NCBI GenBank assembly: GCA_019358915.1
Contig: JAHHIM010000043.1
Location: forward strand, 1-32,000
Length of the DNA stretch: 32,000 bases
From: Trichormus sp. ATA11-4-KO1
GTDB lineage: Bacteria > Cyanobacteriota > Cyanobacteriia > Cyanobacteriales > Nostocaceae
Direction: 5' to 3'
Below are positions 2,136-23,459 of this stretch, one piece after another. Position 1 is the stretch's first letter; every line of letters starts with the position of its first letter. The notes below the pieces were generated by a model. It was not told the DNA's origin. It did no database searches and was given only the letters and a program-made list of their open reading frames with translations. Both the position numbers and the translations under genes were made by a program.

Positions 2136-2146
2136 TGTTGTCAAAA

Positions 2147-2430
2147 GAAGCAGGGGAGCAACGCGAAAAAGTGAGATCATCGTGAAAAGAGCAGGGGAGG
2201 CAGGGGGAGCAGGGGAAGTGAAGAGAGAATTTGAGTACTTTTTACAAAGAAAGGCAGAGGGCAGAGGGCAGAAGCCCAGTTTAAAAAAAAGAATTGTATC
2301 GAGACGCGTAGCGCAAGATACAAAGCGTCCTTGCCTCAATCCCACGTTTTTAAACGTGGGTTCCCGAACGGATTGCTTATACACTTATTTCTTTCTCTCC
2401 CCCTGCCTCCCCTACTTCCCCTGCTGCTTC
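2147..2430. mobile_element. Composite MITE-like element with inverted GCAGGGG(G/A)-type arms and a nested GGCAGAG heptamer arm
   Basis: Left GAAGCAGGGGAGCA / GCAGGGGAGGCAGGGGGAGCAGGGG, right CCCCCTGCCTCCCCTACTTCCCCTGCTGCTTC. 2247-2271 is identical to 21741-21765. Hairpin CCCACGTTTTTAAACGTGGG at 2341-2360. Confidence 0.65.
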
Positions 2431-2480
2431 AACGATTATCCCTTTTCAAGCGTGCCATTCGTATAAGACCGCAGTTGTAT

Positions 2481-2795
2481 ATGCCGGAAAAAAAATTTCG
2501 TGTTGTCAATCAAACATTAGGCAGTCAACCGAAAATAGGCCCGTTCCCTGCCGACCAGATTCTGCCGTGGACTGTAATAGCAATAGCCAGCACACTTTTT
2601 TTCTACTACATCCTAAATATAGGATGGCTAGCAACTTTATTTACTACATTTTGGGGATGGGCAACGTGGTGGTTTGTATCAACGAACAAAAGCTTCCTGG
2701 GTAAATTTGTGGGTACGCCTCGAATCAGTAGAGGATATATGCCCTTTTCATCACTATTAAATCCTCCAAAAAATCAAATTAAAAAACGTAAATAA
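2481..2795 (+). CDS. MPF_C T4SS VirB3-like small membrane protein (Alr7205-like position)
   Basis: ATG at 2481 (upstream part of the track ORF is repeat-derived); 104 aa with two TM helices, immediately before virB4. Confidence 0.65.
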   Translation: MPEKKFRVVNQTLGSQPKIGPFPADQILPWTVIAIASTLFFYYILNIGWLATLFTTFWGWATWWFVSTNKSFLGKFVGTPRISRGYMPFSSLLNPPKNQIKKRK

Positions 2796-2805
2796 TATTA
2801 AGTCA

Positions 2806-5628
2806 ATGTCTAAAAAATCTCAAAATAAAACAGAAAGATTGGGAAAAACAACATTGACACTGACACCCTTTGAAGATGTTGTTCATCTATCGGGTATCTG
2901 CGAAATTGAATTAGCAGGGAGGCAAGGAGTAGGAGCATTAATTCTCAAGAAAAAAGAAACCATTCAAATTAAATTTGCTTTTGATTGCAATGGGATTCAC
3001 CCTAGTTTAGCAACAGAGCAGGTATTACCAATCTTTGAAGGAATAGAAGCTGGTTTAAAAGAATTGCCAGAACGGGAATTTTTGACAATTCACTTTGGTT
3101 CTTTTACTAATGATTACCAAAGACAAAAAGAATTAAACCAAATTGAAAATGAATGTAAAATCGAACAAATGAAGCTGCTTTTACGCAGTGAGCGATTACG
3201 AGTAAGAGGACTAACAAAGTTGGGGGTTCGCAAAAATAAATTCTTGAGACTTTGGTGTACATACACAGTCAATGATGAAGAAAAAATCGAAGATTTTGCT
3301 GAAGTAGGACTGAAGAAAATACAAACCATTTGGCATCAGTTTACAGGAGAAATTCATCAATTAAACAAAGACCGCATCGAAAATATTTTACGTACCTCAT
3401 TCCTGGACGGATTCCAATCTTGGGAGCAGATAATTTCCAATAAAATGGGATTAATTGTAACGCCTCTAAGCGCTTCAGAAATTTGGGGGACAATGTGGGC
3501 AATGTTAAACACAAAAGAGCCGACAGAAATTCCAAATCCCCTAATCCTAAACAAAAAGGGATTGACAGAAAATCAAACGAGTGATTTTCATATTAGACAT
3601 CATCTTCTAGAAAACGAAAAGTCTGTCCCTGTTTTTGATAGAAAGTGGGTGAAGCTGCAAGACAAATATATAGGAGCGCTAAATTTTAGTCACAAACCAG
3701 GGGGGTGGGTAGATGAATATTCACAACTGCGATACCTGTGGGAGGTAATATCTAAAGAGAAGATTTTTGACACAGAGATTTTTTGTCAAATCAGCAAAGC
3801 CAACCAAGCGATCGCCAAGACAAATTTGCAGCGTTTAACTAAGCAGTCGATTACCTCAACTACCATGTCCAGTGACAAAGGTAATATCGACGTAAAAGCC
3901 GGACTGAACATTGAAGAATCAGTAGAAGCTCAACGTACTCTATACAAAGGTAGTACCGTAATTCATACGGCAGTGGTTTTTTTAGTCCACCGAGCTTCTT
4001 TGCAGAAGCTGGATGATGATTGTCGATATTTAGCCAGTTGTTTTCTCAGACCGGCAGTAGTTAGCCGAGAGGTGGAATATGCCTGGAAATTATGGCTGCA
4101 ATGCTGCCCATTCGTATGGGAGCCATTACTGACAAAACCATTCAACCGCCGACTACCCTATTTTAGTAGTGAAGCGCCAGGGCTAATACCACTAATTAGA
4201 ACATCCACAGGGGATAAATCAGGTTTTGAATTAATAGCGGAGGAGGGAGGAACGCCAGTACACCTGGATTTATACAAAAACCATAAAAACCTGGCAGTAT
4301 TTGGTACAACTCGTTCTGGTAAATCAGTGTTAGCTGCGGGTATTTTGACCCCAGCTTTAGCGCAAGGGATTCCGGTAATAGCCTTGGATTACCCCAAACC
4401 TGATGGTACGTCTACTTTCACGGATTACACCAAGTTATTGGGTAATGATGGAGCGTATTTTGACATTGCTAGAGAATCAAATAATTTGTTTGAGCTTCCA
4501 GACTTGCGCTTGATGAGTGAAGAAATTATTAAAGAGCGGATGTCTGATTTCAAGGATTTCCTGAAGTCCGTGCTAATGACAATGATTATTGGCATGAACT
4601 CAATTGGTGTGAGTCCAACAATCATCTCGATAATTGAGTCGATTATCGCTTTGGCATTGCAGACATTCTTTAGCGACGACCAAATAAAACTACGATATCA
4701 AGCAGCCCTCAAGGCAGGAATAGGGACACGAGAATGGCTAGATACCCCAACTTTAAAAGACTTTTGTAAATACTGCACGCCTGGATATATTAATCTCGAT
4801 TCTCTATCTAACAGTAGCAAAGAAGTAACTGAAGCGTTAGGACAAATTCAAATAAGATTGAAATATTGGCTAGGTAGCAAAGTAGGACAGTCAATTTCTC
4901 AACCTTCCAGTTTCCGCACAGATGCCAAATTATTAGTATTTGCTCTCCGAAATTTAGCCAGTGAATCTGATGCGGCAATAGTAGCGTTAAGTGCTTACGC
5001 CGCAGCTTTACGAAGGGCCTTATCTTCTAAAGCCAGTATATTCTTTCTAGATGAAGCTCCGATTTTATTTGAATTTGATGCCATAGCTGATTTGATTGGG
5101 CGACTATGTGCAAATGGTGCGAAAGCGGGGATTCGTGTCATTTTATCGGCACAAGAGCCGGAAAGTATTTTTCAAAGTAAAGCAGCTGCGAAAATTTTCG
5201 CCAATCTTAGTACGCGTTTAGTAGGTAGAATTCAATCTTCAGCAATTGATCCATTTGTACAAAGATTCAAGTACCCTTACGAAATTATCAGTCGTAACAG
5301 TACAGAGTCATTTTATCCCAAGAAAGAGGGTATCTACTCAAGTTGGTTATTAGATGATAATGGCAAACTTACCTTCTGTCGTTATTATCCAGCATATTGT
5401 TTATTAGCAGCAGTTGCTAATAATCCCAATGAGCAAGAATTAAGGTCTTTGTTCCTCGCCAAATATCAACACAACCCTATTCTCGGATTTTATAAATTCA
5501 GCGAGGAATATATCAAACTGATTCGAGATGAGGAGCTATCAGAGGAAGCTAAACAATTGTTAACAGGAAACTTATTGAAGAATTCAGGAGCCAGAAATCA
5601 GGAGTCAGAATCAATGAGTCTGGTCTGA
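2806..5628 (+). CDS. virB4: VirB4-family T4SS ATPase
   Basis: 940 aa; Walker A GTTRSGKS, Walker B FFLDEA, VILSAQ motif; operon context. Confidence 0.9.
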   Translation: MSKKSQNKTERLGKTTLTLTPFEDVVHLSGICEIELAGRQGVGALILKKKETIQIKFAFDCNGIHPSLATEQVLPIFEGIEAGLKELPEREFLTIHFGSFTNDYQRQKELNQIENECKIEQMKLLLRSERLRVRGLTKLGVRKNKFLRLWCTYTVNDEEKIEDFAEVGLKKIQTIWHQFTGEIHQLNKDRIENILRTSFLDGFQSWEQIISNKMGLIVTPLSASEIWGTMWAMLNTKEPTEIPNPLILNKKGLTENQTSDFHIRHHLLENEKSVPVFDRKWVKLQDKYIGALNFSHKPGGWVDEYSQLRYLWEVISKEKIFDTEIFCQISKANQAIAKTNLQRLTKQSITSTTMSSDKGNIDVKAGLNIEESVEAQRTLYKGSTVIHTAVVFLVHRASLQKLDDDCRYLASCFLRPAVVSREVEYAWKLWLQCCPFVWEPLLTKPFNRRLPYFSSEAPGLIPLIRTSTGDKSGFELIAEEGGTPVHLDLYKNHKNLAVFGTTRSGKSVLAAGILTPALAQGIPVIALDYPKPDGTSTFTDYTKLLGNDGAYFDIARESNNLFELPDLRLMSEEIIKERMSDFKDFLKSVLMTMIIGMNSIGVSPTIISIIESIIALALQTFFSDDQIKLRYQAALKAGIGTREWLDTPTLKDFCKYCTPGYINLDSLSNSSKEVTEALGQIQIRLKYWLGSKVGQSISQPSSFRTDAKLLVFALRNLASESDAAIVALSAYAAALRRALSSKASIFFLDEAPILFEFDAIADLIGRLCANGAKAGIRVILSAQEPESIFQSKAAAKIFANLSTRLVGRIQSSAIDPFVQRFKYPYEIISRNSTESFYPKKEGIYSSWLLDDNGKLTFCRYYPAYCLLAAVANNPNEQELRSLFLAKYQHNPILGFYKFSEEYIKLIRDEELSEEAKQLLTGNLLKNSGARNQESESMSLV

Positions 5629-5749
5629 ATCCCCGACTCATTGTAGACCAGCAAAATTTTAATTTAGTGAGGGTCTTATACCCATTTATTCGTCCGCCAG
5701 TCACATAGAATTAAATTCTGAATTCTGACTCCTGAGTTCTGAATTCTTC
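5577..5749. mobile_element. AGGAGTC/TTCTGAC heptamer-flanked MITE-like element overlapping the virB4 3' end
   Basis: Inverted arms GAAGAATTCAGGAGCCAGAA ... TTCTGACTCCTGAGTTCTGAATTCTTC; core homologous (reverse complement) to 18325-18487. Confidence 0.75.
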
Positions 5750-5771
5750 TTGTAAAAATCGCTTAATTATC

Positions 5772-6488
5772 ATGCAACTCAAACCCCAAAAATTTATCAT
5801 CCCTATTTCTATTGTGCTGACAGGGATATTGATTTCTACTCCCAGTCACGCATTAAGCTTGCCAATTCTTAATTTTGTTCAGTCGATTATTGATGATGTG
5901 AGGAATGAGTATAGGCAGTTAGAGCAGCAAGTACAGCAAAAAATTGATAGTTCCTGGGCAGACATCAAGAATGATGCCCGTGAAGCTATTCAAAGTTCAA
6001 TGGGTTCAATGGGAACACCAGACCCAGTATCCAGTGGTGAAGACTTGAAACAAAGACTGAGAAATAGTCGTTCACTGCCAGAAGCCAAAAATCTGGCTCA
6101 AGATTTAGAACGAGATTTAACTCGAGCTTCTGTCTCATCTGTTGTGGGAGTAGAGGGACAACAAGATACGGAAAGAAAAATTCAGGCGACTACTCAAATA
6201 GCTCAAGAAGCTCAAAGTTTGGCACAGCAAGCACAAAACATGGATGCCTCCCAAAATATCTTGAAAGTCATCGCGGCTCAAAATGCTCAAATGGTTTCGG
6301 CGATCACTCGTCTTCACGCTGATTCTTTAGCTTCTCGACAAGATACAGCCCAATCAAATTTGATGCTGGCACAGATTGCCGACAATTTAGCCAGCACCCG
6401 TGAAAAAGAGAATTTACGAATTACAGGGCAGGCTACTTTAACTCAAGAATTAGTATTTATGTCCGTTTTAGATCCAGCAAGAAACTAA
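5772..6488 (+). CDS. MPF_C T4SS secreted coiled-coil protein (VirB5/TrbJ-like position)
   Basis: Signal peptide ending TPSHA; Gln/Ala-rich helical body; follows virB4. Confidence 0.6.
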   Translation: MQLKPQKFIIPISIVLTGILISTPSHALSLPILNFVQSIIDDVRNEYRQLEQQVQQKIDSSWADIKNDAREAIQSSMGSMGTPDPVSSGEDLKQRLRNSRSLPEAKNLAQDLERDLTRASVSSVVGVEGQQDTERKIQATTQIAQEAQSLAQQAQNMDASQNILKVIAAQNAQMVSAITRLHADSLASRQDTAQSNLMLAQIADNLASTREKENLRITGQATLTQELVFMSVLDPARN

Positions 6489-6491
6489 TAT

Positions 6492-7610
6492 ATGTTGCCA
6501 TTAATCCATTTGTTAGCTCAAACTCCTCCACCTGATAATGTCGCCCAGAGAGCCGCCCAAGTTTCTCAGGCAGTTTCTCAAGGTTTTGATGAGTTGTGGC
6601 AAGAGGTGCTGGGAGGCCCACTTTATTCTGCGATGTGTACAGTTGGTACATTATTTGCAATAACAACACTGGGGTTTTACATTCTGGAATGGACAAAACA
6701 AGTTTTAAACAATGAAGAACAACGAGCTTTTAGTTCTTTTATCTGGCCCTTAATTATTTCGGCACTGCTGTTTAACAATGGACAACTTTTGGGAAGAACG
6801 ACTGTTGGAATCAAAGACTATATAAATAATGTAAACAATTATGTGCTAACAAGAACAGCTGTAGGAGTTGACCTAAGAGCGGCTTATACCAGGGCTTTAG
6901 GTGTGACAGCAGTACGAAGTGCTATCGGCAGAGAAATTGAGATGTGTCAGTCATCTTCGTTGAGTCCCCAAGATGGCATTGATTGCTTGCAAGAAGCAAG
7001 AGGACGGCTCATGTCTCAGTATCCTAGCTACTTTGGTGCAACTGGCCCTTTTGCGTGGTTAATTGACCGCATAGATACTGTGATATCTGCGCCTATTCAA
7101 GCTATAAGAGGCGGCGCTAATCCTATTCAAGTTCTACTTTCTCCGTTTAGTGGGTACGTTGGCTCAGTTGTGTCGGAGAATATCACCAATATATTGGTAG
7201 GTCTAAGCGGAGCATATCAATGGGGCATAGAATTAACTATGCTTCTGAGCGCTTATCTTGGCCCTTTGGCTGTAGGTGGTTCATTACTACCCTATGGTTC
7301 ACGTTCAATTTTTGCATGGCTCACAGGATATTTTTCTGTCGGCATGGCAAAACTAGGTTTCAGCATTATCACAGGTTTTGCTGCCGAATTAATTGCTAAT
7401 TCTCGTTCAGATCAACCGCTATTTTTCTTATTCACAATTGGAATTATTGCGCCTTTTTTAGCCACAGGATTGGCGGCGGGTGGTGGACTAGCATTGCTTA
7501 ATCAAATTAATAAAGCCGCAGATGAAGCTAAGAATTTAGCCAAAGATGTTGCTGTCACTGTGTCCACTGGTGGTGGTGGTGGTGTGGCCAGAATGATTCG
7601 TCCTAGATAA
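6492..7610 (+). CDS. VirB6/TrbL-like polytopic T4SS membrane protein
   Basis: About six TM helices, periplasmic loop with a Cys pair, GPLAVGGSLLP, Gly-rich C-terminus. Confidence 0.7.
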   Translation: MLPLIHLLAQTPPPDNVAQRAAQVSQAVSQGFDELWQEVLGGPLYSAMCTVGTLFAITTLGFYILEWTKQVLNNEEQRAFSSFIWPLIISALLFNNGQLLGRTTVGIKDYINNVNNYVLTRTAVGVDLRAAYTRALGVTAVRSAIGREIEMCQSSSLSPQDGIDCLQEARGRLMSQYPSYFGATGPFAWLIDRIDTVISAPIQAIRGGANPIQVLLSPFSGYVGSVVSENITNILVGLSGAYQWGIELTMLLSAYLGPLAVGGSLLPYGSRSIFAWLTGYFSVGMAKLGFSIITGFAAELIANSRSDQPLFFLFTIGIIAPFLATGLAAGGGLALLNQINKAADEAKNLAKDVAVTVSTGGGGGVARMIRPR

Positions 7611-7830
7611 TGAATCAATTCAAAATTCAAAATTCAAAATTAAAAATTAAAAATAAAGCAAGTGGCGTTGGGGTTTCTACCTACCTTGGAAAACAAGGAT
7701 TTTTTTGCTCACAATTCCACTCGGTTTTGAACCTAACTTTTTTTTCATAAAATCAACTATGTAAAGAAAAATGAATCAGCTTAAAACCCTCTTCCCTCCT
7801 GCCTTCTGCCTTCTGCCTTCTGCCTTATCC
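7610..7830. repeat. Composite intergenic heptamer repeats (TTCAAAA array and CTGCCTT array)
   Basis: TTCAAAA tandem near 7617-7655, (CTGCCTT)n near 7799-7826; CACAATTCCACTCGGTTTT at 7710-7728 recurs exactly at 21146-21164. Confidence 0.7.
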
Positions 7831-7869
7831 TAGCGATAAATTTTCCCACCCACCTACTTACATATAATT

Positions 7870-8658
7870 ATGCTCAAAATTAAACAAACAAACAAAGAGC
7901 CAAGTTTACTGTTGAGTTATGGAGCGGCAGTTCCAACTAGAGTAGCAATTGTAGCAGTAGTGGGATGTTCTGTAGCTTGTATTTCTTTGATTGTCCAATT
8001 TCTGAATTATGGGGCAATTAGCAGATTAGCTAAAAATAAAGTACCTTCATTGATTCAATTGTCAAATGGAGAAACTATCTATGCAAAAGCGGTAGACCCA
8101 GCAGAGCGCTCAAGTGAAACTATTAAGCAGTTTGTCTCTGATGCCTTTGTTGGAATGTTCAATTGGGATGGATTAGTTCAGACAAATAATGAGCAAGGTA
8201 AGCTGGTAATCAAAACAGATCCTGGGGTAGAAATCAAGGGAATAGATAACAATGCCTCTCGAAAAGTGACGACGAAAGCTTATGAAGCTGCTTTCTCTCT
8301 GACAGACAAACAAGGCTTCCGTTCGGCTTTTCTCAGGCGACTGGCACAAATGACCGACCCGGAAATATTTAGCGGAAATATTCGGGTAGCTATTGTCCCC
8401 AACTATATTTCAAATCCTCGCAAAATTAGCGAAGGAAAGTGGCAGATTGATTACCAATCTACTTTAGTGACCTTCAAGAAATTAGATAATGCTGGTGACG
8501 CTATTCCTTTTAATAAAACAATAACAGTTGAATCAGTTACCACCCCGCAAAACCCTCCAGAAGATACTACAGAATTAGCTAAGAAAATATATAGAATTCG
8601 GCAACCGGGACTAGAAATAACTCAAATTACTGATTTAAACCTTGGGAAAAATAATTGA
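7870..8658 (+). CDS. VirB8-like bitopic T4SS protein
   Basis: Single N-terminal TM then alpha/beta periplasmic domain; sits between VirB6-like and VirB10-like genes. Confidence 0.6.
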   Translation: MLKIKQTNKEPSLLLSYGAAVPTRVAIVAVVGCSVACISLIVQFLNYGAISRLAKNKVPSLIQLSNGETIYAKAVDPAERSSETIKQFVSDAFVGMFNWDGLVQTNNEQGKLVIKTDPGVEIKGIDNNASRKVTTKAYEAAFSLTDKQGFRSAFLRRLAQMTDPEIFSGNIRVAIVPNYISNPRKISEGKWQIDYQSTLVTFKKLDNAGDAIPFNKTITVESVTTPQNPPEDTTELAKKIYRIRQPGLEITQITDLNLGKNN

Positions 8659-8660
8659 TT

Positions 8661-10250
8661 ATGAATGAAAATATCTCAAATACAGAAAATCAAGAAAGTT
8701 CATCACTTGTTGATGAAATATTAAACATTGATGAACTGGATGAATCTTTCGTTGAACAAGAAGATAAAGCTCAAGATGAGATTCAAGACGTTGATGAAGC
8801 TGAACTTTTGACCAAGCATAATGTGATTACTTCCCCTTGGTCGAGGCTGGGTATAATTGGTGTACCGTTAGGTATTGGATTTTTGATTTTTTACTTTCTG
8901 TTTAACAACATAATTAACGGCAATTCTCAAGCCACAAACCAAAGTACTAAACCTACAGAAACAGAAGCAACAGAACAATCAACATCTGAATCTAATGATG
9001 GAGATGTTTACGCTCAACTAGCATTAGCTAGACAGTCTGAGCAATTAGAAAAAATTTACCAACAGAAACAAGAAGCACCATCACCTGAGTTACCAGAAAC
9101 CTCTAAAGTTAAACCTGAAACAGTTCCTAATCAATCTCTAACACCGCCGCCACCAGCACCGCCACCACCAGCACCGCCGCCGCCACCACCTAGAAATTAC
9201 TCCCCACCTCCACCTCCACCGACACCGACTCCTCCAAGAGTAACGCTAGAAAGAGAATTAACTCAAGCTCCCGACCCAATCAGTGAACTGAATAGATTAC
9301 GGAAAATGGGGTCATTTGGCAATATCGCCTATGCTGCCAATGAAAATGAATCATTGCCTGCTTCACAGCCCATACTCACAAGAATAGAGTCAGAAGAAAA
9401 CGAACCTGAACTTCCCATTACCAGCCCTCACCAAATTACTCCCAACGCGCTTTCTAGAGAGGGGATTGAGAAGATAGAGCCTCGTTGGCAAGTAGAAAAG
9501 CAAAGCAGACAAGCCAAGATGAATGATCTCAAAATAGCGTCAGTTAACTTTTTACCCCAGGAGGCTCAAATTATCAATGAGCGCCGCAGTCGTTACCTAG
9601 TAGTTGGAGAGTTCGCTAGCGGCACTTTGATTACTCCTTTGGTTAAAGAACAGTCCACTGATACAAATAACCAGCAGAATGAAGACGGCAAGCACTATGT
9701 TGCCAGGCTCACTGAAGACCTCAAAGATAATTACGGAAATGTGGCGATCGCTAGAGGCAGTTTAATGGCATTAGAAATGCTGTCAGTTGATGGTGCAAGT
9801 TACGCTCAAGTACAAGTAACAAGCATCATCAAAGACAACACAGAATATCCCATCAGTGCAGGAGCGATTACTGTACAGGGGGATGGCGGTAAACCATTAA
9901 TAGCTCAACAGCATAAAGATAAAGGCGGCGAAATCGCTAGGTATGACCTCACAGTGGGTTTGGTGAGCGGTTTAGAGAAGATTGGAGAAATTATTAATCA
10001 ACCCGACATTGAAGATGACATTGAAGACGAATTATTAGATGGTCGGATTCGTCGCCGCCGCCGCGTCAACAATAGTCGTCGCAATATTGGTGGGGCTGTA
10101 CTAGAAGGTGCATTCGGGAGCCTCAGCGAGATTATTGGTCGTCGGGCTGAAACTTCCACACAAGAAATTTTGGCTCGTCCCAATGTTTGGTACATACCTA
10201 AAGACACCAAATTAACATTTTTGGTCAACCGTACTTTAGAGCTTCCTTGA
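8661..10250 (+). CDS. virB10: VirB10/TrbI-family T4SS core protein
   Basis: Acidic N-terminus, one TM, long Pro-rich linker, C-terminal beta domain ending in VWYIPKDTKLTFLVNRTLEL (TrbI-like). Confidence 0.75.
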   Translation: MNENISNTENQESSSLVDEILNIDELDESFVEQEDKAQDEIQDVDEAELLTKHNVITSPWSRLGIIGVPLGIGFLIFYFLFNNIINGNSQATNQSTKPTETEATEQSTSESNDGDVYAQLALARQSEQLEKIYQQKQEAPSPELPETSKVKPETVPNQSLTPPPPAPPPPAPPPPPPRNYSPPPPPPTPTPPRVTLERELTQAPDPISELNRLRKMGSFGNIAYAANENESLPASQPILTRIESEENEPELPITSPHQITPNALSREGIEKIEPRWQVEKQSRQAKMNDLKIASVNFLPQEAQIINERRSRYLVVGEFASGTLITPLVKEQSTDTNNQQNEDGKHYVARLTEDLKDNYGNVAIARGSLMALEMLSVDGASYAQVQVTSIIKDNTEYPISAGAITVQGDGGKPLIAQQHKDKGGEIARYDLTVGLVSGLEKIGEIINQPDIEDDIEDELLDGRIRRRRRVNNSRRNIGGAVLEGAFGSLSEIIGRRAETSTQEILARPNVWYIPKDTKLTFLVNRTLELP

Positions 10251-10978
10251 TGAAGATGAATAAGCTAAAAATAACTGGATGGGCTATAGGTCTGTGCGTG
10301 AGTTTTACCCCACTTATCGCCAATGCATCCACACCTATTGTTCGCAGCTTTAAGCAGTCTCAAGTCAGTGGTGAAACTGCGACTTTTCAAACTATCAATG
10401 TTTGGAATGGTCACGGTGTCAGTATCTCATTCTACGAAGTTGGGGAGACAATCAAAAGAGTGTGGTTAGACGACCCCTCCCAAATCCTGGTAGATACTGA
10501 CGGCTGTTTAGAAGGCATCGACCAAAATTGCCAAAATCCTGGTGCCGGGCTGATTCACCTGCGACGAATTAACCGAGTTAATATTCCTGGCTTACCCCAA
10601 GCACCAAGCACTCTGCTAACGATTATTACGCAATCATCAAGTGGAGAGCGCAAGGCTTACAGTTTTCGTGTAGCTACTTCTAATGGCACGCCTAAATATA
10701 GTCAAGTAGTGATTACTAATGATGTGGTTGTGCAACAAGAGAAAGCTATTCCACAACTTCAACCGTTAGTAACTACTCTGAAAACTACACGTAATCTCAA
10801 AAATGGGATAGCTGTTGCTATTAGGAATAAATTGCTCAATCCCCAAGACAAATTACATCAACGCCTAGAAAAATTAATTAACTACTTACAACAAGGAGAT
10901 GAAATTACTACGGCTGCTAGTAAAGCGGTTGTCTCAATGGAATTAGTCAATAAAATCATGGAAATAGGCCAAATTTAA
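10250..10978 (+). CDS. VirB9-like secreted T4SS protein
   Basis: Signal peptide (LIANA), beta-rich domain (TINVWNGHGVSISF...ETIKRVWLDDPS); start overlaps the virB10 stop. Confidence 0.55.
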   Translation: MKMNKLKITGWAIGLCVSFTPLIANASTPIVRSFKQSQVSGETATFQTINVWNGHGVSISFYEVGETIKRVWLDDPSQILVDTDGCLEGIDQNCQNPGAGLIHLRRINRVNIPGLPQAPSTLLTIITQSSSGERKAYSFRVATSNGTPKYSQVVITNDVVVQQEKAIPQLQPLVTTLKTTRNLKNGIAVAIRNKLLNPQDKLHQRLEKLINYLQQGDEITTAASKAVVSMELVNKIMEIGQI

Positions 10979-10980
10979 AA

Positions 10981-12189
10981 ATGACTACAGAAAAACCATC
11001 ACAAAAAGCTAAGAAAGATATTGCTAGTTATCTCATATTGTGGGGCTTATTAGGGGGATTATTTATCCATAGTTTTATCAAACATGGAATACTAAATCAA
11101 GCAATCGGCTGGATGATTCCCCAGGCATCGGCTCAAGTTCCCATTGTTAATTCCCGTTCTGGATTCATGCCGGATTGGTCAAGGCTTCGCTTCAGCGACA
11201 TGATTGTACAAGAAAGCGGTAGCGTGAGGTTTCCAGGAAGATTGGGAACAGAAACTAGGACTTGGAGTGCTGGACAAAGTATCGCCGAATTTTTAGAGTT
11301 GGGCGATTTTGAAGAAGCAGATTTTGGCATAGAAAGACTCAATGTGCAAGCGATCGCTCGCACCCAAGGGACAAACATCAACACACTGCGTTTATCCGAT
11401 TTTGGATTATTAAAAAAGCAATCTATAGCGAATTTAGTACAAGCAGTCCCAAGCTTAAGGAATAGATATGTCAGCCAAGTTCCACCAATCAGAGATTTGT
11501 TGAGGCGATCTGGATGGGGAACTAGCGGAAGAATAGGTGACATTGCTCAAATCAACGGAATAAGACAACTACAGCTTGGGCGAATCGACTTAAGCCGATA
11601 TAGATTGTTAGATATTCCAGGGGTGGAGAGGACAGCGATTCAAAGGTTTGCAAACTGGCAAGATACGTTAATTAAAGACATTCCCGGACTGCCTAACTTA
11701 ACTTGGAACAATTTTCCTAGTATCCCCACAGCTTCCCTGGCATTTATTGGCAAAGTTGATCTACCTTTAGGTGATCTCGAAGCTAACAGAATCCGCAGTA
11801 TTTCTGGTAGTTACCAAGAAGGTTTCAACGTTCCGTGCAATCTTCCTAGTTGCGCTCACTTTGAATTATCTGGGTTTACGCCTGGCGCTACAGGCGCGCA
11901 GTGGATATCAGGTAAATCCCAACAAGTGCGCGGGGGTTTTGGGATTTTACGTGTGGTCAACGGAGGAAGAGAACCCACAGGACGGCATCCGTTTGGTTCC
12001 GCCTTTAAACAAGTGGTGTGGAATATCAATGAAGCTGAAGGTAGGGTTGACACCAGCATGTTTTTTAGAATTTGCAAGCGGATAGCTTTTGTTCGCACTT
12101 GCACTCCCTATTTTATCGGGCCTGTTCCCTTTATCAATTATCGAGAAAAAGACCCAATAATTCTTGGTAATCCTCCTACAGTTCCGTAA
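10981..12189 (+). CDS. MPF_C-associated exported protein (Alr7212-like position)
   Basis: N-terminal TM, internal (I/V)PG(L/V)-type repeats, Cys-containing C-terminal domain; last gene before the coupling protein. Confidence 0.55.
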   Translation: MTTEKPSQKAKKDIASYLILWGLLGGLFIHSFIKHGILNQAIGWMIPQASAQVPIVNSRSGFMPDWSRLRFSDMIVQESGSVRFPGRLGTETRTWSAGQSIAEFLELGDFEEADFGIERLNVQAIARTQGTNINTLRLSDFGLLKKQSIANLVQAVPSLRNRYVSQVPPIRDLLRRSGWGTSGRIGDIAQINGIRQLQLGRIDLSRYRLLDIPGVERTAIQRFANWQDTLIKDIPGLPNLTWNNFPSIPTASLAFIGKVDLPLGDLEANRIRSISGSYQEGFNVPCNLPSCAHFELSGFTPGATGAQWISGKSQQVRGGFGILRVVNGGREPTGRHPFGSAFKQVVWNINEAEGRVDTSMFFRICKRIAFVRTCTPYFIGPVPFINYREKDPIILGNPPTVP

Positions 12190-12310: not shown

Positions 12311-14101
12311 ATGAGCAAACAAAATACAGTAATCGCGCAACAACCATCACAGTTTAGGCAATTTCCAAATCAGTTATCCACTCAGTTTAATCAACTACAA
12401 GACCCACAACATGACATTGGTAAATATACACATAACTTATTTAGTCCCAACGGATTGAGTCTTTTAGGGATGTTAGGGTTATTGATTATTCTGAAAGTCT
12501 TTTTTGGTGATAGCAATAATAAAAAGAAACTGGCCAGTAGTTATTGGGGAGGAAAAAAAGAGATTGCTGCTGCTAAGAAAAAAGCCCTAAAACAGATATC
12601 AACAATCAAGTGTGATAGTGCTGCTTTATATATTGGCAAGCATCAATTTAAAGGAAGAAAAACAGAAAAAGGTAGTGTGGGTATTCCCTTTTATGTTCCA
12701 GATGCCCAACGAGGTACAGCAGCTATTGGCGCTCCTGGTAGTGGGAAAACTTTCAGTGCTATCAATCCTTTAATTTACTCAGCAATTGACCAAGGATTTC
12801 CCATAATTGCGTATGATTTCAAATATCCATCCCAAGCCAAAATTGCAGCTTATGCCAAGAAAATGGGATATGACGTGCATATTTTCGCCCCTGGTTTCCC
12901 GGAATCTGAAGTCTGCAACCCTATTGATTTTTTAAGAGACTCTGCTGATGCAGAAACAGCAAGACAGCTAGCAACAGTTATTAATAAAAACTTCCGAATT
13001 ATCAGTAGTGCCAGTGAAGATGGTTTCTTTGGCCCTTCAGGAGATCAATTAACGCAAGCAATTTTAATGCTCACTAAAGAATTTGGCGATCGCGCTGACA
13101 TTATGACCTCAGCTGCTATCCTTTCTAGTGAGCAAATGGTCACCCGCTTAATGGCAGCTAACTTAAATCCTTGGATTAGAATCGCTTTTGGTCAGTTATT
13201 TAGTTCTGCTGGTTCTGAGAAAACTGTTGCCGGAATCACTGCTACTGCATCCTTAATGTTTACCCGCTTCATGGCGAAAAACACATTAGGCTGTTTTGTT
13301 GGTAAAACTACTTTACCCTTAGAAATTAAGGGTAAGCAAATGATTATTTTTGGACTAGATAGAGAGCGTCGAGATGCTGTTGCTCCCTTGATGACCAGTA
13401 TTCTACATATGACTGTGGCGAGGAATATTGCTAAAAAACGCCAAGACCCTCTAATAGTAGCTCTGGACGAATTACCCTCAATCTACTTACCAGACTTGTA
13501 TAAATGGCTGAACGAATCTCGAAGTGAAGGCTTTTGTGGTGTCCTGGGCTGGCAGAATATGGGTCAACTTGAGAAGAATTACGGTAAGGAAGTAGCTAAA
13601 ACTATCCTTGGTGCTTGCGGTACCAAGTTTGTCTTTAATCCCGGTGAAAACGATTCGGCACAATTATTTTCTAGCTTTTTGGGAGATGAAGAAATCAGAT
13701 ATAAACACAAAAGCCGTTCCACTGGTGGTGGGAAAGCCAATACGACAACGAGTGAGCAAGAAAAGACTAAGAAACTCTTTGAGTCTGCCCAATTTCTCAA
13801 ATTGCCAGCAGGTAAATGTGTTTTTATCAACCCTGCATATTCCAATAAAAATGAGGGGTCAGTTCCCTTGCTAAAAACTATCAAAATCCCTAAGTCCATT
13901 ATCTCAATCGATGATTACAACCAAGAACAATGGAGTAAATTAGTCGCTAAAATGGCACGACGAAGCACCCAAAGACCTCCGACACAACAAGATTTAGATA
14001 TCAGAATTAGAGAAGTAGACCGGAGACTGCCAATACCTGAAGACCCTGTGGAACCTGGGGTTCAGATGTTGCCTGTAGATAGCCTCAAATCAATGCTGTA
14101 G
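12311..14101 (+). CDS. virD4: Type IV coupling protein (VirD4/TraG/TraD family)
   Basis: N-terminal TM, Walker A GAPGSGKT, YDFKYP, NPIDF, Walker B VALDEL, GWQNMGQL, SSFLGDEEI. Confidence 0.92.
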   Translation: MSKQNTVIAQQPSQFRQFPNQLSTQFNQLQDPQHDIGKYTHNLFSPNGLSLLGMLGLLIILKVFFGDSNNKKKLASSYWGGKKEIAAAKKKALKQISTIKCDSAALYIGKHQFKGRKTEKGSVGIPFYVPDAQRGTAAIGAPGSGKTFSAINPLIYSAIDQGFPIIAYDFKYPSQAKIAAYAKKMGYDVHIFAPGFPESEVCNPIDFLRDSADAETARQLATVINKNFRIISSASEDGFFGPSGDQLTQAILMLTKEFGDRADIMTSAAILSSEQMVTRLMAANLNPWIRIAFGQLFSSAGSEKTVAGITATASLMFTRFMAKNTLGCFVGKTTLPLEIKGKQMIIFGLDRERRDAVAPLMTSILHMTVARNIAKKRQDPLIVALDELPSIYLPDLYKWLNESRSEGFCGVLGWQNMGQLEKNYGKEVAKTILGACGTKFVFNPGENDSAQLFSSFLGDEEIRYKHKSRSTGGGKANTTTSEQEKTKKLFESAQFLKLPAGKCVFINPAYSNKNEGSVPLLKTIKIPKSIISIDDYNQEQWSKLVAKMARRSTQRPPTQQDLDIRIREVDRRLPIPEDPVEPGVQMLPVDSLKSML

Positions 14102-14110
14102 GAGTTTTCA

Positions 14111-14623
14111 GTGAGAGCAAAGATTAGAGAGGAAGCTATCACTGACTTTCAACATATATACCAATTGGATCAAACAAAAAAAAGATTGCTAGGAAACATA
14201 GTAAATGTTTTAGGAGCTACATCACACATTGTCAGTGCTTTTTACAAACAATCCAGCAAGAGACCCTCATTAAAGAAAGTTGGTATATATGTCAAGCTTG
14301 TATTTAAGCATGTCCAAAAAATACTTGATGAAAAATATTATGAGCAAATTATTTACAGGTATCTTCAAGGAATTGGCTGGAGCGATTTACAATATATAGC
14401 TTTTATTGCTGTTAGGAGAAATTTAGTGGAAATTGACATTATTCTCAATCGAGTTATCTCTAGCACTAAAATCATCGATTTAAAATGCTTGGGTGCTACC
14501 TGGATGCAATACGAAATTCTGCAAAAAGTATATACAGAAATAATTAACACAGCCAATAGTAAATTTGTAAAGATTCAGAATTCAGAATACAAGAGTCAGA
14601 ATATTTCAAACTCTCATATTTGA
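14111..14623 (+). CDS. Degenerate MOBP-like relaxase domain lacking HUH histidines
   Basis: Collinear with the MOBP pattern: LDEKYYEQIIYRYLQGIGWSDLQY...EIDIILNRV versus LDDxxWxxIAxxYLxxMGFxxxQY...HxDxxxxHxHIxxNRV. GTG start with AGGAG RBS at the virD4 stop. Confidence 0.6.
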   Translation: MRAKIREEAITDFQHIYQLDQTKKRLLGNIVNVLGATSHIVSAFYKQSSKRPSLKKVGIYVKLVFKHVQKILDEKYYEQIIYRYLQGIGWSDLQYIAFIAVRRNLVEIDIILNRVISSTKIIDLKCLGATWMQYEILQKVYTEIINTANSKFVKIQNSEYKSQNISNSHI

Positions 14624-14918
14624 TAAATAAACTAATATTCCTAAACTCTGATAATTCTGACTCCTGACTACTGAATTCTTACATTCCTAAACCCTAATTA
14701 ATTCTGATTTCTGACCTTTTTTGAATTCAAAATGCAAAATGCAAAATGCAAAATAAAATTTTGCAATTGATTAATTCGCTCGTTCAAGCCCCCGCCATAA
14801 TCTTTAATTTTGTAAAGCCCTGGCGGGCATGGCTGCGCTTACCGCGCAGCGTGCCTTGGGCTGCTATTAATAATTTTGAATTTTGAATTGATTTGACTCC
14901 TGAGTGCTGAATTCTTAC
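14568..14918. repeat. TTCTGAC/GTCAGAA heptamer-flanked composite element hosting a nested insertion
   Basis: Left arm TTCAGAATTCAGAATACAAGAGTCAGAAT; two right arms ending GAATTCTTAC at 14682 and 14918. Confidence 0.7.
14712..14897 (+). mobile_element. TTCAAAA/TGCAAAA-flanked MITE-like element with TGAC target duplication
   Basis: TGAC at 14712-14715 and 14894-14897; excision restores TTCTGACTCCTGAGTGCTGAATTCTT. First 37 bp identical to 20044-20080. Confidence 0.8.
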
Positions 14919-14927
14919 CTCAATTTT

Positions 14928-17324
14928 ATGTTTGATCCAAATTCCGTAAATCTTGTTTCCATTTTTTCTAGGGAAGATTATCAAAGAACTCTGAAAATTT
15001 GGAATGAAGCAATTGTGCCACTAGTTGAAGCAATTTCTGAGCGTTTAGAGTATGAATGGGACAAGAGAGCAAAGATAGAAATTGGATATGATACTTATGT
15101 CATGAAGCCCAATGAATCAGGGGGGTATTCGTGGTCAAAGATTGACCCCCTGATTGATATCGAATGGGATTTTGATGATGATTTAGAAGAAGTAAACAAA
15201 GCCACTACGGAGCCGGTTACATCATCACCTGCCGCTTCCCCATTTTCATCAACTGAAGCCACTCCTTTACCTGGAGTTACTTCAAAAGAGCCAGCCCATA
15301 ATGAAAACACACCAGATTCACCAAATTCCTCTACAGTCTCTCCTACTCCATCCCCTCCAGATCATATTGATTTGGAACATTGGCAAGAAATAGTGGAGGG
15401 CAGTGCCATTGACCCAGATATTGCCAGCCGCAATTTTAAAAGTCTTCAACACGACTCAGTAGAACAAGCAAATGAGGCGTGGGAATACCTGATGTACAGT
15501 AACAACATCTCCCGCCGTAACGATGGACGGCTCAGAGATGGAGATTTAAACAGATATCAGCACCTAGAAAAAGGCGGTTGGTGGTGCAATGCTGGGGTTG
15601 ACCCTCGCTCATTCCCAGATTTACAACCAGGCGACAAACCCGATGAAAAGCTGTGGGGATGCTTCAAACCTAACGCACCTAGGGAAAGTAGTGATAAACC
15701 TGGTAAATTCATCAAATACGAGCATCCACCCAAAACTGACTTGAGTATCTTTTTACTGGATGTGCCTGGCGCGATCGCTAACAAAATTTACGACAAAGCT
15801 GGAGTTAATCCAACCGAGAGCGATCGCCAGAGTGGATTTTGGTACTGTGCTTGGAAACATAATCTACCCATAATTGTGACTGAAGGTGCTAAAAAAGCAG
15901 GCAGCTTGTTAAGCCAAGGTCATGCAGCTATTGGATTACCGGGAATTAATGCTGGCTACCGTAGTCGAGATGAACAGGGGAATCCCATTCAGCCTCAACT
16001 GCGTGAAGAATTTGCCATGTTTGCGAATAAAGGTAGAGATATCAAATTCTGCTTTGACCACGATATCAAGCCGAAAACCATTCGTAATGTGAACATTGCT
16101 CTATTACAAACTGGTAACTTACTTGAGAAAGCTGGGGCAAACGTTAGTGTCATCGCGCTGCCTGGCCCTGAAAAAGGAGTTGATGATTTTACAGTCAAAC
16201 AGGGTTCAGTTGCTTTTGAACAGTTATTTAAAGAAGCTCAACCTTTAAAAGAGTGGCAGAAAAATTACCAACCACCTGATTTAAAATTCACAATCTTGTT
16301 GAAAAACGGCGAGGTACTCAAACTTTATGAAAAACAGGCAGACGGGACTGTTAGTGCCAATCCAGCTAATTTGTCATCAGAAGAAGTTGCTAATTCTATC
16401 CCTAAACCTCGCTCATCTCCAGAACCGCAAGCACCTATTAATTCAAAAAACTCAGAAAATAACAGTAGTAAAGAAGAAGCTAATCCCAATGTTGCACTAC
16501 CTTTAATTGAAAATAATGATAATTATCATGAATCTCAAAATCAACAATACTGGGCAGCACAACAACAAGTGCCAATCTACGCCAAAACTCTTCCTAGACA
16601 ATTTCTACTGAAGAAAGAAAATCAAGATATTGCATCTACTGCCAAGCAACTTATTGATAATTATGGAGTGGAATTAGATGATAGTAGCTTGGTTTACAAG
16701 AGTGATGCTTTTACCGTAAGGAAATTTCGTGACACTTACAGTATCCACCGTGCCGAAGATGAACAGAATACTTATTTCGCTCAACCTCTGATGCAATTTG
16801 AGATTGATAAACAAGGTAAGATTGCCATTACCAAAGAGCCGGAAAATATGCTGGCAGTAGAACGACAAGAATTTTTAAATGTTGCTAGCAAGGAAAATCA
16901 ACTACCTTCATTTTATGAAGATGCTAAAACACTTAAATCTCATCTAGGTTCTCTTGCTCCTTTGGGAACTCAAGAAACTATAAAAAAAATACAGATATCA
17001 GAAATTGGTCAACTGCTTAATAATACTTTAAATACAGCACAATCTCGTCATCTACAAATAGGAGCTTACCGAATTAAATCTGAGAATAATCCCCAGACTG
17101 GTGATAACTTTATTAAATTGTTTAAAAAAGAAAATAATTTAGATAGAGAAGCTATCAAGATTAATTTAACTACAAATGAAGCTCATACATTTAAAATTGG
17201 ACAGCAAGATGTCGAAAACCTCCAACTAATTGCTAAGAGGGTACAGTTAGAATATTCTCAACCACAATCTAGACAACAATTTCGCCAAAGTCGCAAGTCT
17301 AAAAATCCCGATATCGAATTATAA
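14928..17324 (+). CDS. DUF3854 (Toprim) primase-like protein with long C-terminal extension
   Basis: KYEHPPK, IIVTEGAKKAGSLLSQGHAAIGLPG, FCFDHD, KGVDD motifs; ATG 14928 preferred because GTG 14904 lies inside a repeat. Confidence 0.8.
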   Translation: MFDPNSVNLVSIFSREDYQRTLKIWNEAIVPLVEAISERLEYEWDKRAKIEIGYDTYVMKPNESGGYSWSKIDPLIDIEWDFDDDLEEVNKATTEPVTSSPAASPFSSTEATPLPGVTSKEPAHNENTPDSPNSSTVSPTPSPPDHIDLEHWQEIVEGSAIDPDIASRNFKSLQHDSVEQANEAWEYLMYSNNISRRNDGRLRDGDLNRYQHLEKGGWWCNAGVDPRSFPDLQPGDKPDEKLWGCFKPNAPRESSDKPGKFIKYEHPPKTDLSIFLLDVPGAIANKIYDKAGVNPTESDRQSGFWYCAWKHNLPIIVTEGAKKAGSLLSQGHAAIGLPGINAGYRSRDEQGNPIQPQLREEFAMFANKGRDIKFCFDHDIKPKTIRNVNIALLQTGNLLEKAGANVSVIALPGPEKGVDDFTVKQGSVAFEQLFKEAQPLKEWQKNYQPPDLKFTILLKNGEVLKLYEKQADGTVSANPANLSSEEVANSIPKPRSSPEPQAPINSKNSENNSSKEEANPNVALPLIENNDNYHESQNQQYWAAQQQVPIYAKTLPRQFLLKKENQDIASTAKQLIDNYGVELDDSSLVYKSDAFTVRKFRDTYSIHRAEDEQNTYFAQPLMQFEIDKQGKIAITKEPENMLAVERQEFLNVASKENQLPSFYEDAKTLKSHLGSLAPLGTQETIKKIQISEIGQLLNNTLNTAQSRHLQIGAYRIKSENNPQTGDNFIKLFKKENNLDREAIKINLTTNEAHTFKIGQQDVENLQLIAKRVQLEYSQPQSRQQFRQSRKSKNPDIEL

Positions 17325-21003: not shown

Positions 21004-21303
21004 GGAAGAAGTTAGGAGGAAGAAGGAAGAAGGAAGAAGGAATAGCTAATAAAACAGGAGTCAGAATACAGAACTCAGAATTCAGAATACTCTACCCATA
21101 AAGGGATAGAGTTTTAAGGCGAGAATATTTTAATTTTTTTTCGCCCACAATTCCACTCGGTTTTAACCGATATTCATCACCCACTCGTACAAAATTCATA
21201 CTGAATTCTGACTCCTGAGTTCTGAATTCTTCTTATAAAAACTTTAGTTGTGGGTTTAAAGCCCACTTTTTTAAATGTGGGTCTCTTCTTCTTTCTTCCT
21301 TCG
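21002..21303. mobile_element. Nested element: outer GAAGAAG/CTTCTTC arms, inner AGGAGTC/TTCTGAC arms
   Basis: Outer AAGGAAGAAG...CTTCTTCTTTCTTCCTT; inner CAGGAGTCAGAA (~21056) ... TTCTGACTCCTGAGTTCTGAATTCTTC (~21232); hairpins at 21250-21281. Confidence 0.7.
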
Positions 21304-21317
21304 TGAATTAACAAATT

Positions 21318-23318
21318 TCACAGTTCTTGCCCCGGCTGCTTACGCCTCTGTTGTGACTGCTGTTTTTTCCTGGCACATAGCGTATCATTCCAATCTTTAC
21401 CTTTGGGTTTAACCCTGATGGCATGATGTAACTGTTCCATGATCATTCGTGCCGTTTCATCCCCGGCATGGTCATTGTCATAGGCCACTTCCACTGCGGG
21501 AACAGTGTTGAGAAATTCCACAGGCAGACTTTTGGGACTATCTACTGCCATGTACATTGTCCTGGCTAATGGCAGCCCTTGCTGGATTTCCAGTTCAAGC
21601 GTTGCCAATGATAATGCCTCAATGGGGGACTTACACAATACTGCCCTTTGAATTTTGTCTTGTGGTTGACCACTTAAACAAAAGTAAAACCACCCATCAG
21701 TACGCTTGGTTCCTCTCTCATATCCTTTAAAGGTGTTATCAAGAAAGGCAGAGGGCAGAGGGCAGGAGGCAGAAGGAATACTGTCCTCTGTTCTCTGCTG
21801 CGACCACAGTCCTGCCGGGTTTAAGACCCCCACAGTCCTGCCGTTCAGTGGCTCCAAATCAGGAGGGGTGGAATTTCCTCCTGATTTGTTCCTTCTGCCC
21901 TCTGCCGAATGCCTTCTGCCTTCTTCAACTTCCCCTCGTGTCCCTCGTAAAAATGCACCTGTGGTTTCACCGTTCAAATCTCGCATCAAGAACACAGTGT
22001 TCTGTTGCTCGTCAGCATAGACAAACCCCCGCTCATGAAGGGCTTGCACAAAATTTGGTAGTAATCCCCGTTTTTGTGTGAGGTAATTTTGAACCGCTTG
22101 CCAATGGACTTGCTCCTTAACTGGTGCTACAAACTGAGGCTTTGGCTCCACCTGGGCAATTTTCTGAGCTTGTTCTCTGGCATGATGAGTTACAGACCGT
22201 TGCATCCCCACTTCACCAAATCGTTCATTTAGCCAGGCGATCGCTTGCCGATAATTACACTCATTAACGTGCATCACCAAGTCAATTGCACCGCCGCAGC
22301 CCTTTTGGACATTGGGATGAAAGTCGTAAAACTTGGAGCCATCTATCTTCATGATGTGACCGTGACCTCTCCATCTCTTCGACTGGTCACGGTCACGGTC
22401 TAGCCCCAACTGCCATGCTACATCCTCCAGGGGCAAATCCCGTAGTTGTTCGGCTTGCTGTTTCCATAGCAAATTCTCTTTTTCTTGCTCCAGTAAGCGC
22501 CGACCTAAATGCTGGCGGAGTTTTTCTGATGCGATCGCTTTTTGTGATGCCCGTTTCTCTAACTCAATCATTCGTCGGCGATCTGCTAATTGATGATCAA
22601 GGTCGAGTATGCGTTTGTCATTCTTGATCCGGTCAAGTAATTGTTGGGCTGTTTCCCCAGGTAGCGGTGCGAATCGCTCTAGTTCTAAACTTAAAGGTTT
22701 ACTGTTGACTGCCTGATAATATTCTTTAACTTTGGTGTGCGTGGCATTGCTACCTTTAATACCCCGTTCAATGCCCAATGATGCAAGTGCTTGTGCATAA
22801 CTATCTTGCAGCTTCGATAACTTAATTCTTCCTTGTCCCTGACTACCACCGAACATCTCTTTATAGCTCAGTCGTTTGGTTTTTTCGTTGACAGGAACCA
22901 CATAAGCGTGGATATGAGGAGTCGCTTCATCCAAGTGCAATTCTGCCCTAACGCACTTATCGCCGTAATTCTCCAGCAACCAGTTTTTAGAAGCATTGGC
23001 AAAGTCTAACATCCGTTGATTATCCCACTCGCCTGCTCTTGAGGGGTCATGAGGGCGAAAGTATTCTGGTGATGCCGAGAGAAATATTTCACTACACAGT
23101 ACTGAGTCTTTCCTAGGCTTGTATTTTGTCTGGGATGTGATTTTGTCTTTCACCACCTCTAACAGCGATCGCTCGTCACACTCCCCAATGAGCCGGATGT
23201 TTTCTTTAGCTGGGTCAGCATTGGGAGTATCTTGAAGTCGGGCAGTATGTTTCTCACTGCCACCGATGTTGCCAAAGGACTTTAATTTCTCAACGCGCAG
23301 AATTGCCAGCGCTACCAT
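21318..23318 (-). CDS. mobV: MOBV (Pre/Mob) relaxase with C-terminal DUF3991/Toprim-like domains
   Basis: AILRVEKLK...EKHTAR, EIFLSASPEYF, LHLDEATPHIHAYVVP (HUH), LQDSYA...LGIERG; C-terminal YLTQKRGL, VAYDNDHAG, KDWND. Confidence 0.92.
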   Translation of the reverse strand: MVALAILRVEKLKSFGNIGGSEKHTARLQDTPNADPAKENIRLIGECDERSLLEVVKDKITSQTKYKPRKDSVLCSEIFLSASPEYFRPHDPSRAGEWDNQRMLDFANASKNWLLENYGDKCVRAELHLDEATPHIHAYVVPVNEKTKRLSYKEMFGGSQGQGRIKLSKLQDSYAQALASLGIERGIKGSNATHTKVKEYYQAVNSKPLSLELERFAPLPGETAQQLLDRIKNDKRILDLDHQLADRRRMIELEKRASQKAIASEKLRQHLGRRLLEQEKENLLWKQQAEQLRDLPLEDVAWQLGLDRDRDQSKRWRGHGHIMKIDGSKFYDFHPNVQKGCGGAIDLVMHVNECNYRQAIAWLNERFGEVGMQRSVTHHAREQAQKIAQVEPKPQFVAPVKEQVHWQAVQNYLTQKRGLLPNFVQALHERGFVYADEQQNTVFLMRDLNGETTGAFLRGTRGEVEEGRRHSAEGRRNKSGGNSTPPDLEPLNGRTVGVLNPAGLWSQQRTEDSIPSASCPLPSAFLDNTFKGYERGTKRTDGWFYFCLSGQPQDKIQRAVLCKSPIEALSLATLELEIQQGLPLARTMYMAVDSPKSLPVEFLNTVPAVEVAYDNDHAGDETARMIMEQLHHAIRVKPKGKDWNDTLCARKKQQSQQRRKQPGQEL
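21741..21929. mobile_element. 189-bp GGCAGAG/CTGCCTT-flanked element inserted in frame in the relaxase gene
   Basis: Arms AAGAAAGGCAGAGGGCAGAGGGCAG ... CTGCCCTCTGCCGAATGCCTTCTGCCTTCTT; adds 63 codons between GTRGE and DNTFKGY. Confidence 0.8.
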
Positions 23319-23345: not shown

Positions 23346-23459
23346 TTACTTTCGTGCCCCCGGCAGGGCGAACTACTTTTGTGTCTCGAACGCAGTGAGA
23401 GATGCCGTAGGCACCCCGCAGGGGCACGAAAGTAAAGTGAGTATACCATCATGGTACTC
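23346..23459 (+). other. Putative oriT (MOBV/RSA type)
   Basis: Perfect 15-bp inverted repeat TTACTTTCGTGCCCC (23346-23360)/GGGGCACGAAAGTAA (23421-23435) running into AAAGTAAAGTGAGTATAC, similar to the pBBR1 oriT core AAAGTCTAGTGAGTATAC as recalled; just upstream of the relaxase start. Confidence 0.75.

Follow-up and report, generated by a model that had tools for sequence, protein, structure and literature searches.

A predicted MOBP-derived relaxase domain without its active site is maintained behind the coupling protein of Nostocaceae MPF_C plasmids: a tentative gatekeeper of the transfer machine

Results

The transfer region

The window (the whole stretch of DNA that was analysed, 32 kb) is one complete contig and carries an MPF_C-type operon colinear with that of pCC7120alpha, in which the VirB4-like ATPase and VirB10 are accompanied by six more colinear ORFs (Table 1). 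Directly behind the coupling-protein gene lies an unbroken ORF with a GTG start, encoding a protein of 170 aa that we refer to as the pseudo-relaxase. An earlier note on this DNA had described an uninterrupted ORF with a good ribosome-binding site, and both features are confirmed; the AGGAG sequence overlaps the stop codon of the coupling-protein gene, and the two genes are probably coupled in translation.

Table 1. Features of the window, with the grounds for each assignment
Feature	Position	Strand	Grounds or remark
MPF_C type IV secretion operon	1536..12189	+	Colinear with the pCC7120alpha model system
VirB4-like ATPase	2806-5628	+	Within the MPF_C operon
VirB10	8655-10250	+	Within the MPF_C operon
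Type IV coupling protein VirD4/TraG, directly upstream of the pseudo-relaxase	12311..14101	+	PF10412 (E 6e-28), PF12696, PF02534
Ribosome-binding site AGGAG	14100..14104	+	Overlaps the TAG stop of the coupling-protein gene
Pseudo-relaxase: predicted MOBP-derived HUH-fold domain (residues ~1-150) without catalytic Tyr and three-His triad	14111..14623	+	Sequence, model
Place of the MOBP motif I catalytic Tyr, here Q18/L19	14162..14167	+	Tyr in 22/22 controls, 0/125 family rows
Degenerate motif III: A100, E107 and D109 in place of His, His and His	14408..14437	+	Alignment with MOBP
DUF3854-containing protein, directly downstream of the pseudo-relaxase	14904..17324	+	PF12965 (E 7e-43), synteny
MOBV relaxase (Mob_Pre + DUF3991 + Toprim)	21318..23318	-	Intact HTAR and HLDEATPHIH motifs
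Candidate MOBV oriT	23346..23450		15-bp perfect inverted repeat, then a stretch conserved upstream of related mobV genes

The last ~16 codons of the ORF fall within short-repeat DNA (14577-14915) and encode a non-conserved tail modelled with low pLDDT. Inverted elements built of heptamer repeats flank intergenic spaces at 14577-14915 and at 21040-21232, one of them providing these codons. Homologues of the DUF3854 protein begin with MFD, and the start of its gene is likely the ATG at 14928.

The MOBV gene was said to lie about 7 kb away and to encode a working relaxase; the distance is 6.7 kb and the motifs are intact, and it is on these sequence motifs that we presume it to be the working relaxase of the contig. 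The candidate oriT next to it may resemble known MOBV nic sites. A scan of the window with an RP4-type nic pattern returned four matches where 3.5 were expected, which is chance level. The same genome encodes an intact MOBP relaxase on another contig (C39:8545-10083), the C-terminal part of which matches the DUF3991/Toprim tail of the MOBV in the window; the match suggests that nuclease domains have been swapped on a common tail.

Predicted fold and ancestry

The protein matches PF03432 over residues 30-144 with E=0.001 and 19.8 bits, which is below the cut-off of 24.6, a threshold passed by six of the eight other family members tested. Its AlphaFold model (pLDDT 90.8) was compared with 48,161 chains using VIA, and the six best matches are all relaxases: MobA (2ns6; Z 11.4, rmsd 3.5 Å over 142 residues), NES (Z 10.5), TrwC (9.9), TraI (9.7 and 9.6) and MobM (9.3), with a viral Rep as the first non-relaxase at Z 6.6. 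No MOBP structure is among the matches. Foldseek also ranks 2ns6 first (E 3.8e-3) and returns nothing at E<=0.001; a sequence search of the PDB gave nothing significant, and the matches in the ESM Atlas are PF03432 clusters only. As judged by HHalign, the family aligns with 20 MOBP relaxases over 102 columns with a probability of 99.05 and an E-value of 2.2e-18. Structural matches to HUH relaxases, the lack of which the earlier note had taken to count against its reading, were thus found, and a MOBP-like relaxase domain is what both model and alignment point to: the predicted fold is that of HUH relaxases, and the sequence comparison indicates descent from MOBP.

With the MOBP relaxases (PF03432; RP4 TraI, R64 NikB and VirD2 type) the family shares the nuclease-domain pattern, the predicted HUH fold and the structural residues of motifs II and III (RP, Y..MG, QY, NR). 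Unlike active MOBP relaxases, it lacks the catalytic Tyr, the three-His triad and the C-terminal domains; an adjacent gene for an RHH accessory protein (mobC) is also missing, the gene upstream being that of the coupling protein. Its members measure 145-206 aa, versus about 300-1200 in most of the active MOBP relatives seen.

In relaxase trees (72 rows, after 15 had been removed to thin the set), the family forms a single clade (SH-aLRT 98-99) outside the sampled cyanobacterial MOBPs, a placement that carries a long-branch warning; a position as sister to the plasmids' own MOBP is not rejected (p-AU 0.136), and decay of that MOBP in place finds neither support nor rejection. With every sampled cyanobacterial MOBP falling outside this clade, the MOBP donor was not found. 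A screen of 7999 candidates yielded no fused or longer forms, though as evidence this is weak.

Family, synteny and selection

Searched with a profile built from 13 relatives, 389 Nostocaceae genomes gave matches in 84; two were removed, their sole match being a true MOBP, which left 82 genomes with 119 loci. The main type accounts for 100 of these loci, a 145-aa type for two and a ~200-aa type for 17. The ORF is whole at 116 of the 119 loci; two of the others are 5'-truncated near contig ends, and in the third (L063) a deletion has fused the N-terminus of the coupling protein in frame to the C-terminal half of the family, giving 226 aa.

The coupling-protein gene lies directly upstream at every locus with upstream sequence, and a DUF3854-type gene lies downstream except at two loci that end at a contig edge, in keeping with the conserved synteny looked for. 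Some members have diverged to 20-35% identity and are yet still folded, as modelled, and in the same position. In one subclade (L064-L088) the DUF3854 gene is split into an N-terminal ORF of 125-154 aa and an ORF of ~800-970 aa.

An order-wide profile search (64 rows, 401 genomes) matched 48 genomes, only two of them strongly and both Nostocaceae, with no strong match outside Nostocaceae in the genomes searched; the 27 other loci that it returned, together with eight earlier ones, are MOBP relaxases with an intact motif III. A 50%-representative library gave 37 matches, the ten best being family members and most of the remainder MOBP relaxases (E 1e-6 to 1e-3).

The operon order of pCC7120alpha, the MPF_C model system, is identical to that of the window, and the orthologue there, WP_010999769.1, is annotated as hypothetical. 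We take it to be alr7214, going by gene order from alr7213. The latter is VirD4 (PMC8600333). Eight MPF_C profiles have been built (PMC4027160), and alr7214 has no match in the supplements of that paper that were searched.

The best 150 coupling-protein matches in the 389 genomes were examined, 252 weaker ones lying beyond them. The pseudo-relaxase gene lies behind 91 of these 150 and is missing behind 59; it is therefore not a core component of MPF_C.

Selection was assessed from pairwise dN/dS (Nei-Gojobori) among 115 members, pairs that are not independent of each other. In rising dS bins, the medians are 0.40, 0.24, 0.27 and 0.20 for the pseudo-relaxase and 0.33, 0.36, 0.28 and 0.23 for VirB10, and the coupling protein runs from 0.14 to 0.09; at dS 0.1-1.0 the ranges are 0.20-0.27, 0.23-0.36 and 0.09-0.11, respectively. 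The ORF of the contig and its closest relative give 0.058/0.346, and the ~200-aa subfamily gives 0.27 at dS 0.3-1. The family, with values much like those of VirB10, is kept by purifying selection, and so is the ~200-aa subfamily. The idea of a decaying relic without function could draw on the 59 coupling-protein loci that lack the gene and on the dN/dS of about 0.35-0.42 among the closest pairs, but the values of 0.2-0.3 at depth, the 116 whole ORFs and the divergent members that keep both fold and place largely refute it, and we give it hardly any credence. Homologues that evolve neutrally and are frequently broken, the other outcome held to speak against the earlier reading, are accordingly not what the family shows.

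Loss of the active site

The catalytic columns were read from an alignment of 125 family rows, 118 of them loci, with 22 MOBP controls. The motif I Tyr is present in all 22 controls and in none of the family rows. The corresponding column of the contig's ORF holds Q18, or L19 in ungapped register; the nearby Y17 misses this column by one residue, and just 7 of 118 members have it. This loss is additional to those of metal-binding His in motifs II and III stated earlier, which we also find, with Y60 where MOBP has His in motif II and A100-E107-D109 versus H-H-H in motif III.

No member (0/118) has the full His triad; its first His is seen in one of the 118 locus rows, and the second and third are kept in 15/125 and 98/125 family rows. 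The three ligand columns hold 22 different triplets, with Y, K, L and A among the residues: D-Y-H (42 of 118 members), K-E-H (17), L-N-H (15), E-H-H (12) and A-E-D (7), the last being that of the contig's ORF. The former catalytic columns are variable, ranking 139 of 145 (position 100) and 111 of 145 (position 18) by entropy, and the columns that are conserved are structural or family-specific.

HUH relaxases require the motif I Tyr (His in MOBV) together with the motif III triad or its HEN variant, according to PMC12857230. Because Tyr and triad or HEN are absent from the family, there is a strong inference from sequence that it is catalytically inactive. No HEN triplet occurs among the 118 members, nor does the family have a conserved catalytic His of MOBV type at any fixed column of motif I. 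The contig's ORF, with E107 and D109, resembles MOB-HEN relaxases such as ColE1 MbeA in that motif III His residues are replaced by acidic or amide ones; in HEN, however, the first His and the catalytic Tyr are kept (the HEN motif as given in PMC12857230, the Tyr following from its account of HUH relaxases), whereas the family has neither and its replacements are not fixed.

A nuclease with non-canonical chemistry, of the kind of the MbeA HEN variant or the His-catalysed MOBV, might still bind metal through E107 and D109, and two of the three ligand places hold H, D, E or N in 97 of 125 rows and all three in 18, with the last His kept as counted above. Yet no nucleophile is conserved: Tyr and His reach weighted frequencies of 27% and 32% in the region 12-24, neither at a fixed column. 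The scatter of triplets and the complete relaxase found on each complete plasmid checked also argue against activity, and we consider it very improbable. The protein is very probably a dead pseudoenzyme maintained by selection.

Among the conserved residues, E7, W90, D92, L93, Q133 and Y134 are specific to the family; R51, K55, N113 and R114 are also conserved. The latter four, together with the basic character of the contig's protein (pI 9.6), would suit a DNA-binding regulator or an oriT-binding protein, one of the roles put forward in the earlier note. N113, R114 and Q94 are, however, (near-)invariant in active MOBP as well and may be structural, and the pI, which spans 5.7 to 9.6 across the family, drops to 5.7 in several clades. 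In addition, many MOBP relaxases themselves require an accessory protein for oriT binding (PMC12857230). A regulator or oriT-binding role thus appears improbable, and the family-specific residues and the pI range fit binding to protein better than binding to DNA.

MOBV and MOBP relaxases alongside the pseudo-relaxase

A FastTree of 158 coupling proteins, drawn from 95 of the 115 family loci that are complete, from the 59 loci lacking the gene and from four named plasmids, has two sides: the pseudo-relaxase is carried by 79 of 81 on the MOBV-using side versus 16 of 77 in the sister clade. MOBV is present on all 19 complete cyanobacterial plasmids with a main-type pseudo-relaxase, whereas complete sister-clade plasmids carry a distinct MOBP in 17 of 19 cases and MOBV in two, both from Calothrix; plasmid and genome counts are not independent, since the named plasmids overlap the genome set. 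Tyr and triad are intact in the five sister-clade MOBP copies checked, and one of nine sister-clade plasmid regions opened contains a pseudo-relaxase. MOBV itself comes in two types, with about 48% identity, in the clade that retains the gene, and one of them is also found on small mobilisable plasmids.

The association has exceptions in both directions. Two clean deletions of the gene were found in the MOBV clade, one on a contig that keeps an unbroken mobV ORF, and MOBV occurs without it on the Calothrix plasmids and on two plasmids of a third MPF_C clade, where an unrelated gene fills the slot. Conversely, the five replicons of the ~200-aa subfamily that were checked all have a MOBP match (four full-length, one partial) and no MOBV. 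The pseudo-relaxase is therefore dispensable and not MOBV-specific, although in MOBV-using systems it is close to fixation. The suggestion that MOBV displaced MOBP, leaving its fold behind, is not supported as it was put, given this subfamily beside MOBP without MOBV.

Within the sister clade, coupling proteins that differ by about 1% may have or lack the gene, which is gained or lost as a cassette. The ~200-aa gene overlaps, by about 160 nt and in another frame, an ORF of ~142 aa that looks coiled-coil-like (L044, L051, L060), and the two come and go together. Some sister-clade systems have, in the pseudo-relaxase slot after the coupling protein, an unrelated protein of ~90-100 aa (L199:13618-13911, L200:13704-13973 and 17 more loci), which matches neither the pseudo-relaxase family nor Pfam; 3' remnants of its gene lie in the 83-bp spacer of some systems from which it has been lost.

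These distributions bear on two further explanations. The pseudo-relaxase could be an accessory factor that bridges or loads the MOBV relaxosome, the DUF3854 protein or both onto a coupling protein adapted in its evolution to MOBP; transfer would be raised by it but would not depend on it. The position of the gene between those of the coupling protein and the DUF3854 protein at all loci with flanks, its retention across the MOBV clade (79/81) and the pairing of sister coupling proteins, 70-76% identical, with MOBP would all be explained; the two deletions, one with mobV unbroken, the MOBV plasmids of Calothrix and of the third clade, and the ~200-aa subfamily on replicons without MOBV are not readily accommodated. 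We rank this explanation second and regard it as doubtful. The adaptor of the earlier note survives in this non-essential form only, an obligatory MOBV adaptor being disfavoured by the MOBV-bearing MPF_C plasmids that do without the gene.

Relaxases are substrates of type IV secretion systems. The pseudo-relaxase might thus be exported, as a translocation-competent relaxase fold that helps establishment in the recipient, for example with its primase-like neighbour, the adjoining DUF3854 gene product. Only the ~150-aa nuclease domain is retained, however, and the sister-clade homologue of the neighbour (L193:15776-18265) has no DUF3854 Pfam match; export seems to us rather improbable.

Discussion

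The reading that we rank first, with less than even confidence, is that the pseudo-relaxase is a decoy that mimics a relaxase and works against MOBP hitchhikers. Made together with the coupling protein, it would be a non-cutting mimic that occupies a protein surface needed by MOBP relaxases, either the substrate site of the coupling protein or a MobC/RHH recruiter on a foreign oriT, and MOBP relaxosomes of co-resident plasmids would thereby be hindered from using the transfer machine. Such a decoy would be cheap for a plasmid that relies on MOBV and would get in the way of MOBP where this is the plasmid's own relaxase. All of these binding partners are putative; a complex prediction for coupling-protein residues 68-585 with the pseudo-relaxase gave no answer either way, with a score of 0.02.

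Between the adaptor, the oriT-binding regulator and the inhibitor that had been proposed, our best guess is that an inhibitor or decoy fits the distribution best: it would explain why the gene is nearly fixed with MOBV, patchy with MOBP, and dispensable. The reading is favoured by the fact that potential targets are common: small-plasmid-type MOBP occurs in 139 of the 389 genomes and lies, together with MobC, on plasmids of 30-60 kb, and one copy is in this genome (C39). It also has a precedent in CtiC, which imitates a relaxase domain and keeps the relaxosome from assembling (PMC13635750).

Several observations count against the decoy: (i) MOBP co-residence is weakly, not significantly, higher in carriers (42/71 versus 19/45 genomes; Fisher p=0.09, kin not being independent), and 29 of the 71 carrier genomes have no such MOBP at E<=1e-40; (ii) the MOBV/MOBP contrast is one phylogenetic split and may reflect lineage history; (iii) the cyanobacterial MOBPs to be mimicked are not the nearest relatives of the family; (iv) the ~200-aa subfamily persists under selection beside an intact MOBP; and (v) known fertility-inhibition genes, fast-moving accessory genes according to the abstract of PMC5696584, contrast with a pseudo-relaxase that is nearly fixed in the MOBV clade. 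The full proposal, that the HUH nuclease domain of a MOBP was domesticated as a gatekeeper within the coupling operon and excludes MOBP hitchhikers from the type IV secretion systems of MOBV plasmids, is accordingly put forward as a tentative one, more likely wrong than right.

CtiC of SGI1, the closest precedent for the mechanism proposed and the model for it, is likewise a small relaxase-derived protein in a transfer operon and acts as a decoy (PMC13635750); relaxase-domain origin, as predicted here, and transfer-operon location are what the pseudo-relaxase has in common with it. The two differ in what is copied and in who makes it: CtiC, produced by the mobilised island and directed at its helper, imitates a C-terminal, non-catalytic domain of a MOBH relaxase, whereas the pseudo-relaxase is, as predicted, an inactivated catalytic HUH domain on a conjugative plasmid. 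They have no link in sequence or fold, and the decoy function is demonstrated for CtiC only. The fertility inhibitors PifC and Osa act at coupling proteins in plasmid conflicts and are patchy like the ~200-aa subfamily; they are, however, accessory genes and not near-fixed tra members, and a relaxase origin is not described for them (PMC5696584, abstract).

The pseudo-relaxase thus appears to be a pseudoenzyme version of a known relaxase fold, apparently undescribed in print. As the earlier note had supposed for MPF_C systems, the literature searched, from which subscription papers were mostly absent, yielded no description of this protein or of a conserved HUH-relaxase pseudoenzyme.

MPF_C is a class that has not been studied by experiment, and its model plasmid, pCC7120alpha, offers in the orthologue one small gene to knock out. 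If substrate gating is real, it would show how helper plasmids control hitchhikers, with relevance to the design of cyanobacterial vectors; and if the gatekeeper reading is correct, it would represent a helper-side defence against mobilisable parasites made from the parasite's own enzyme fold. Finally, many members pass PF03432 and are annotated 'relaxase/mobilization nuclease', so that false MOBP calls are possible in mobility typing.
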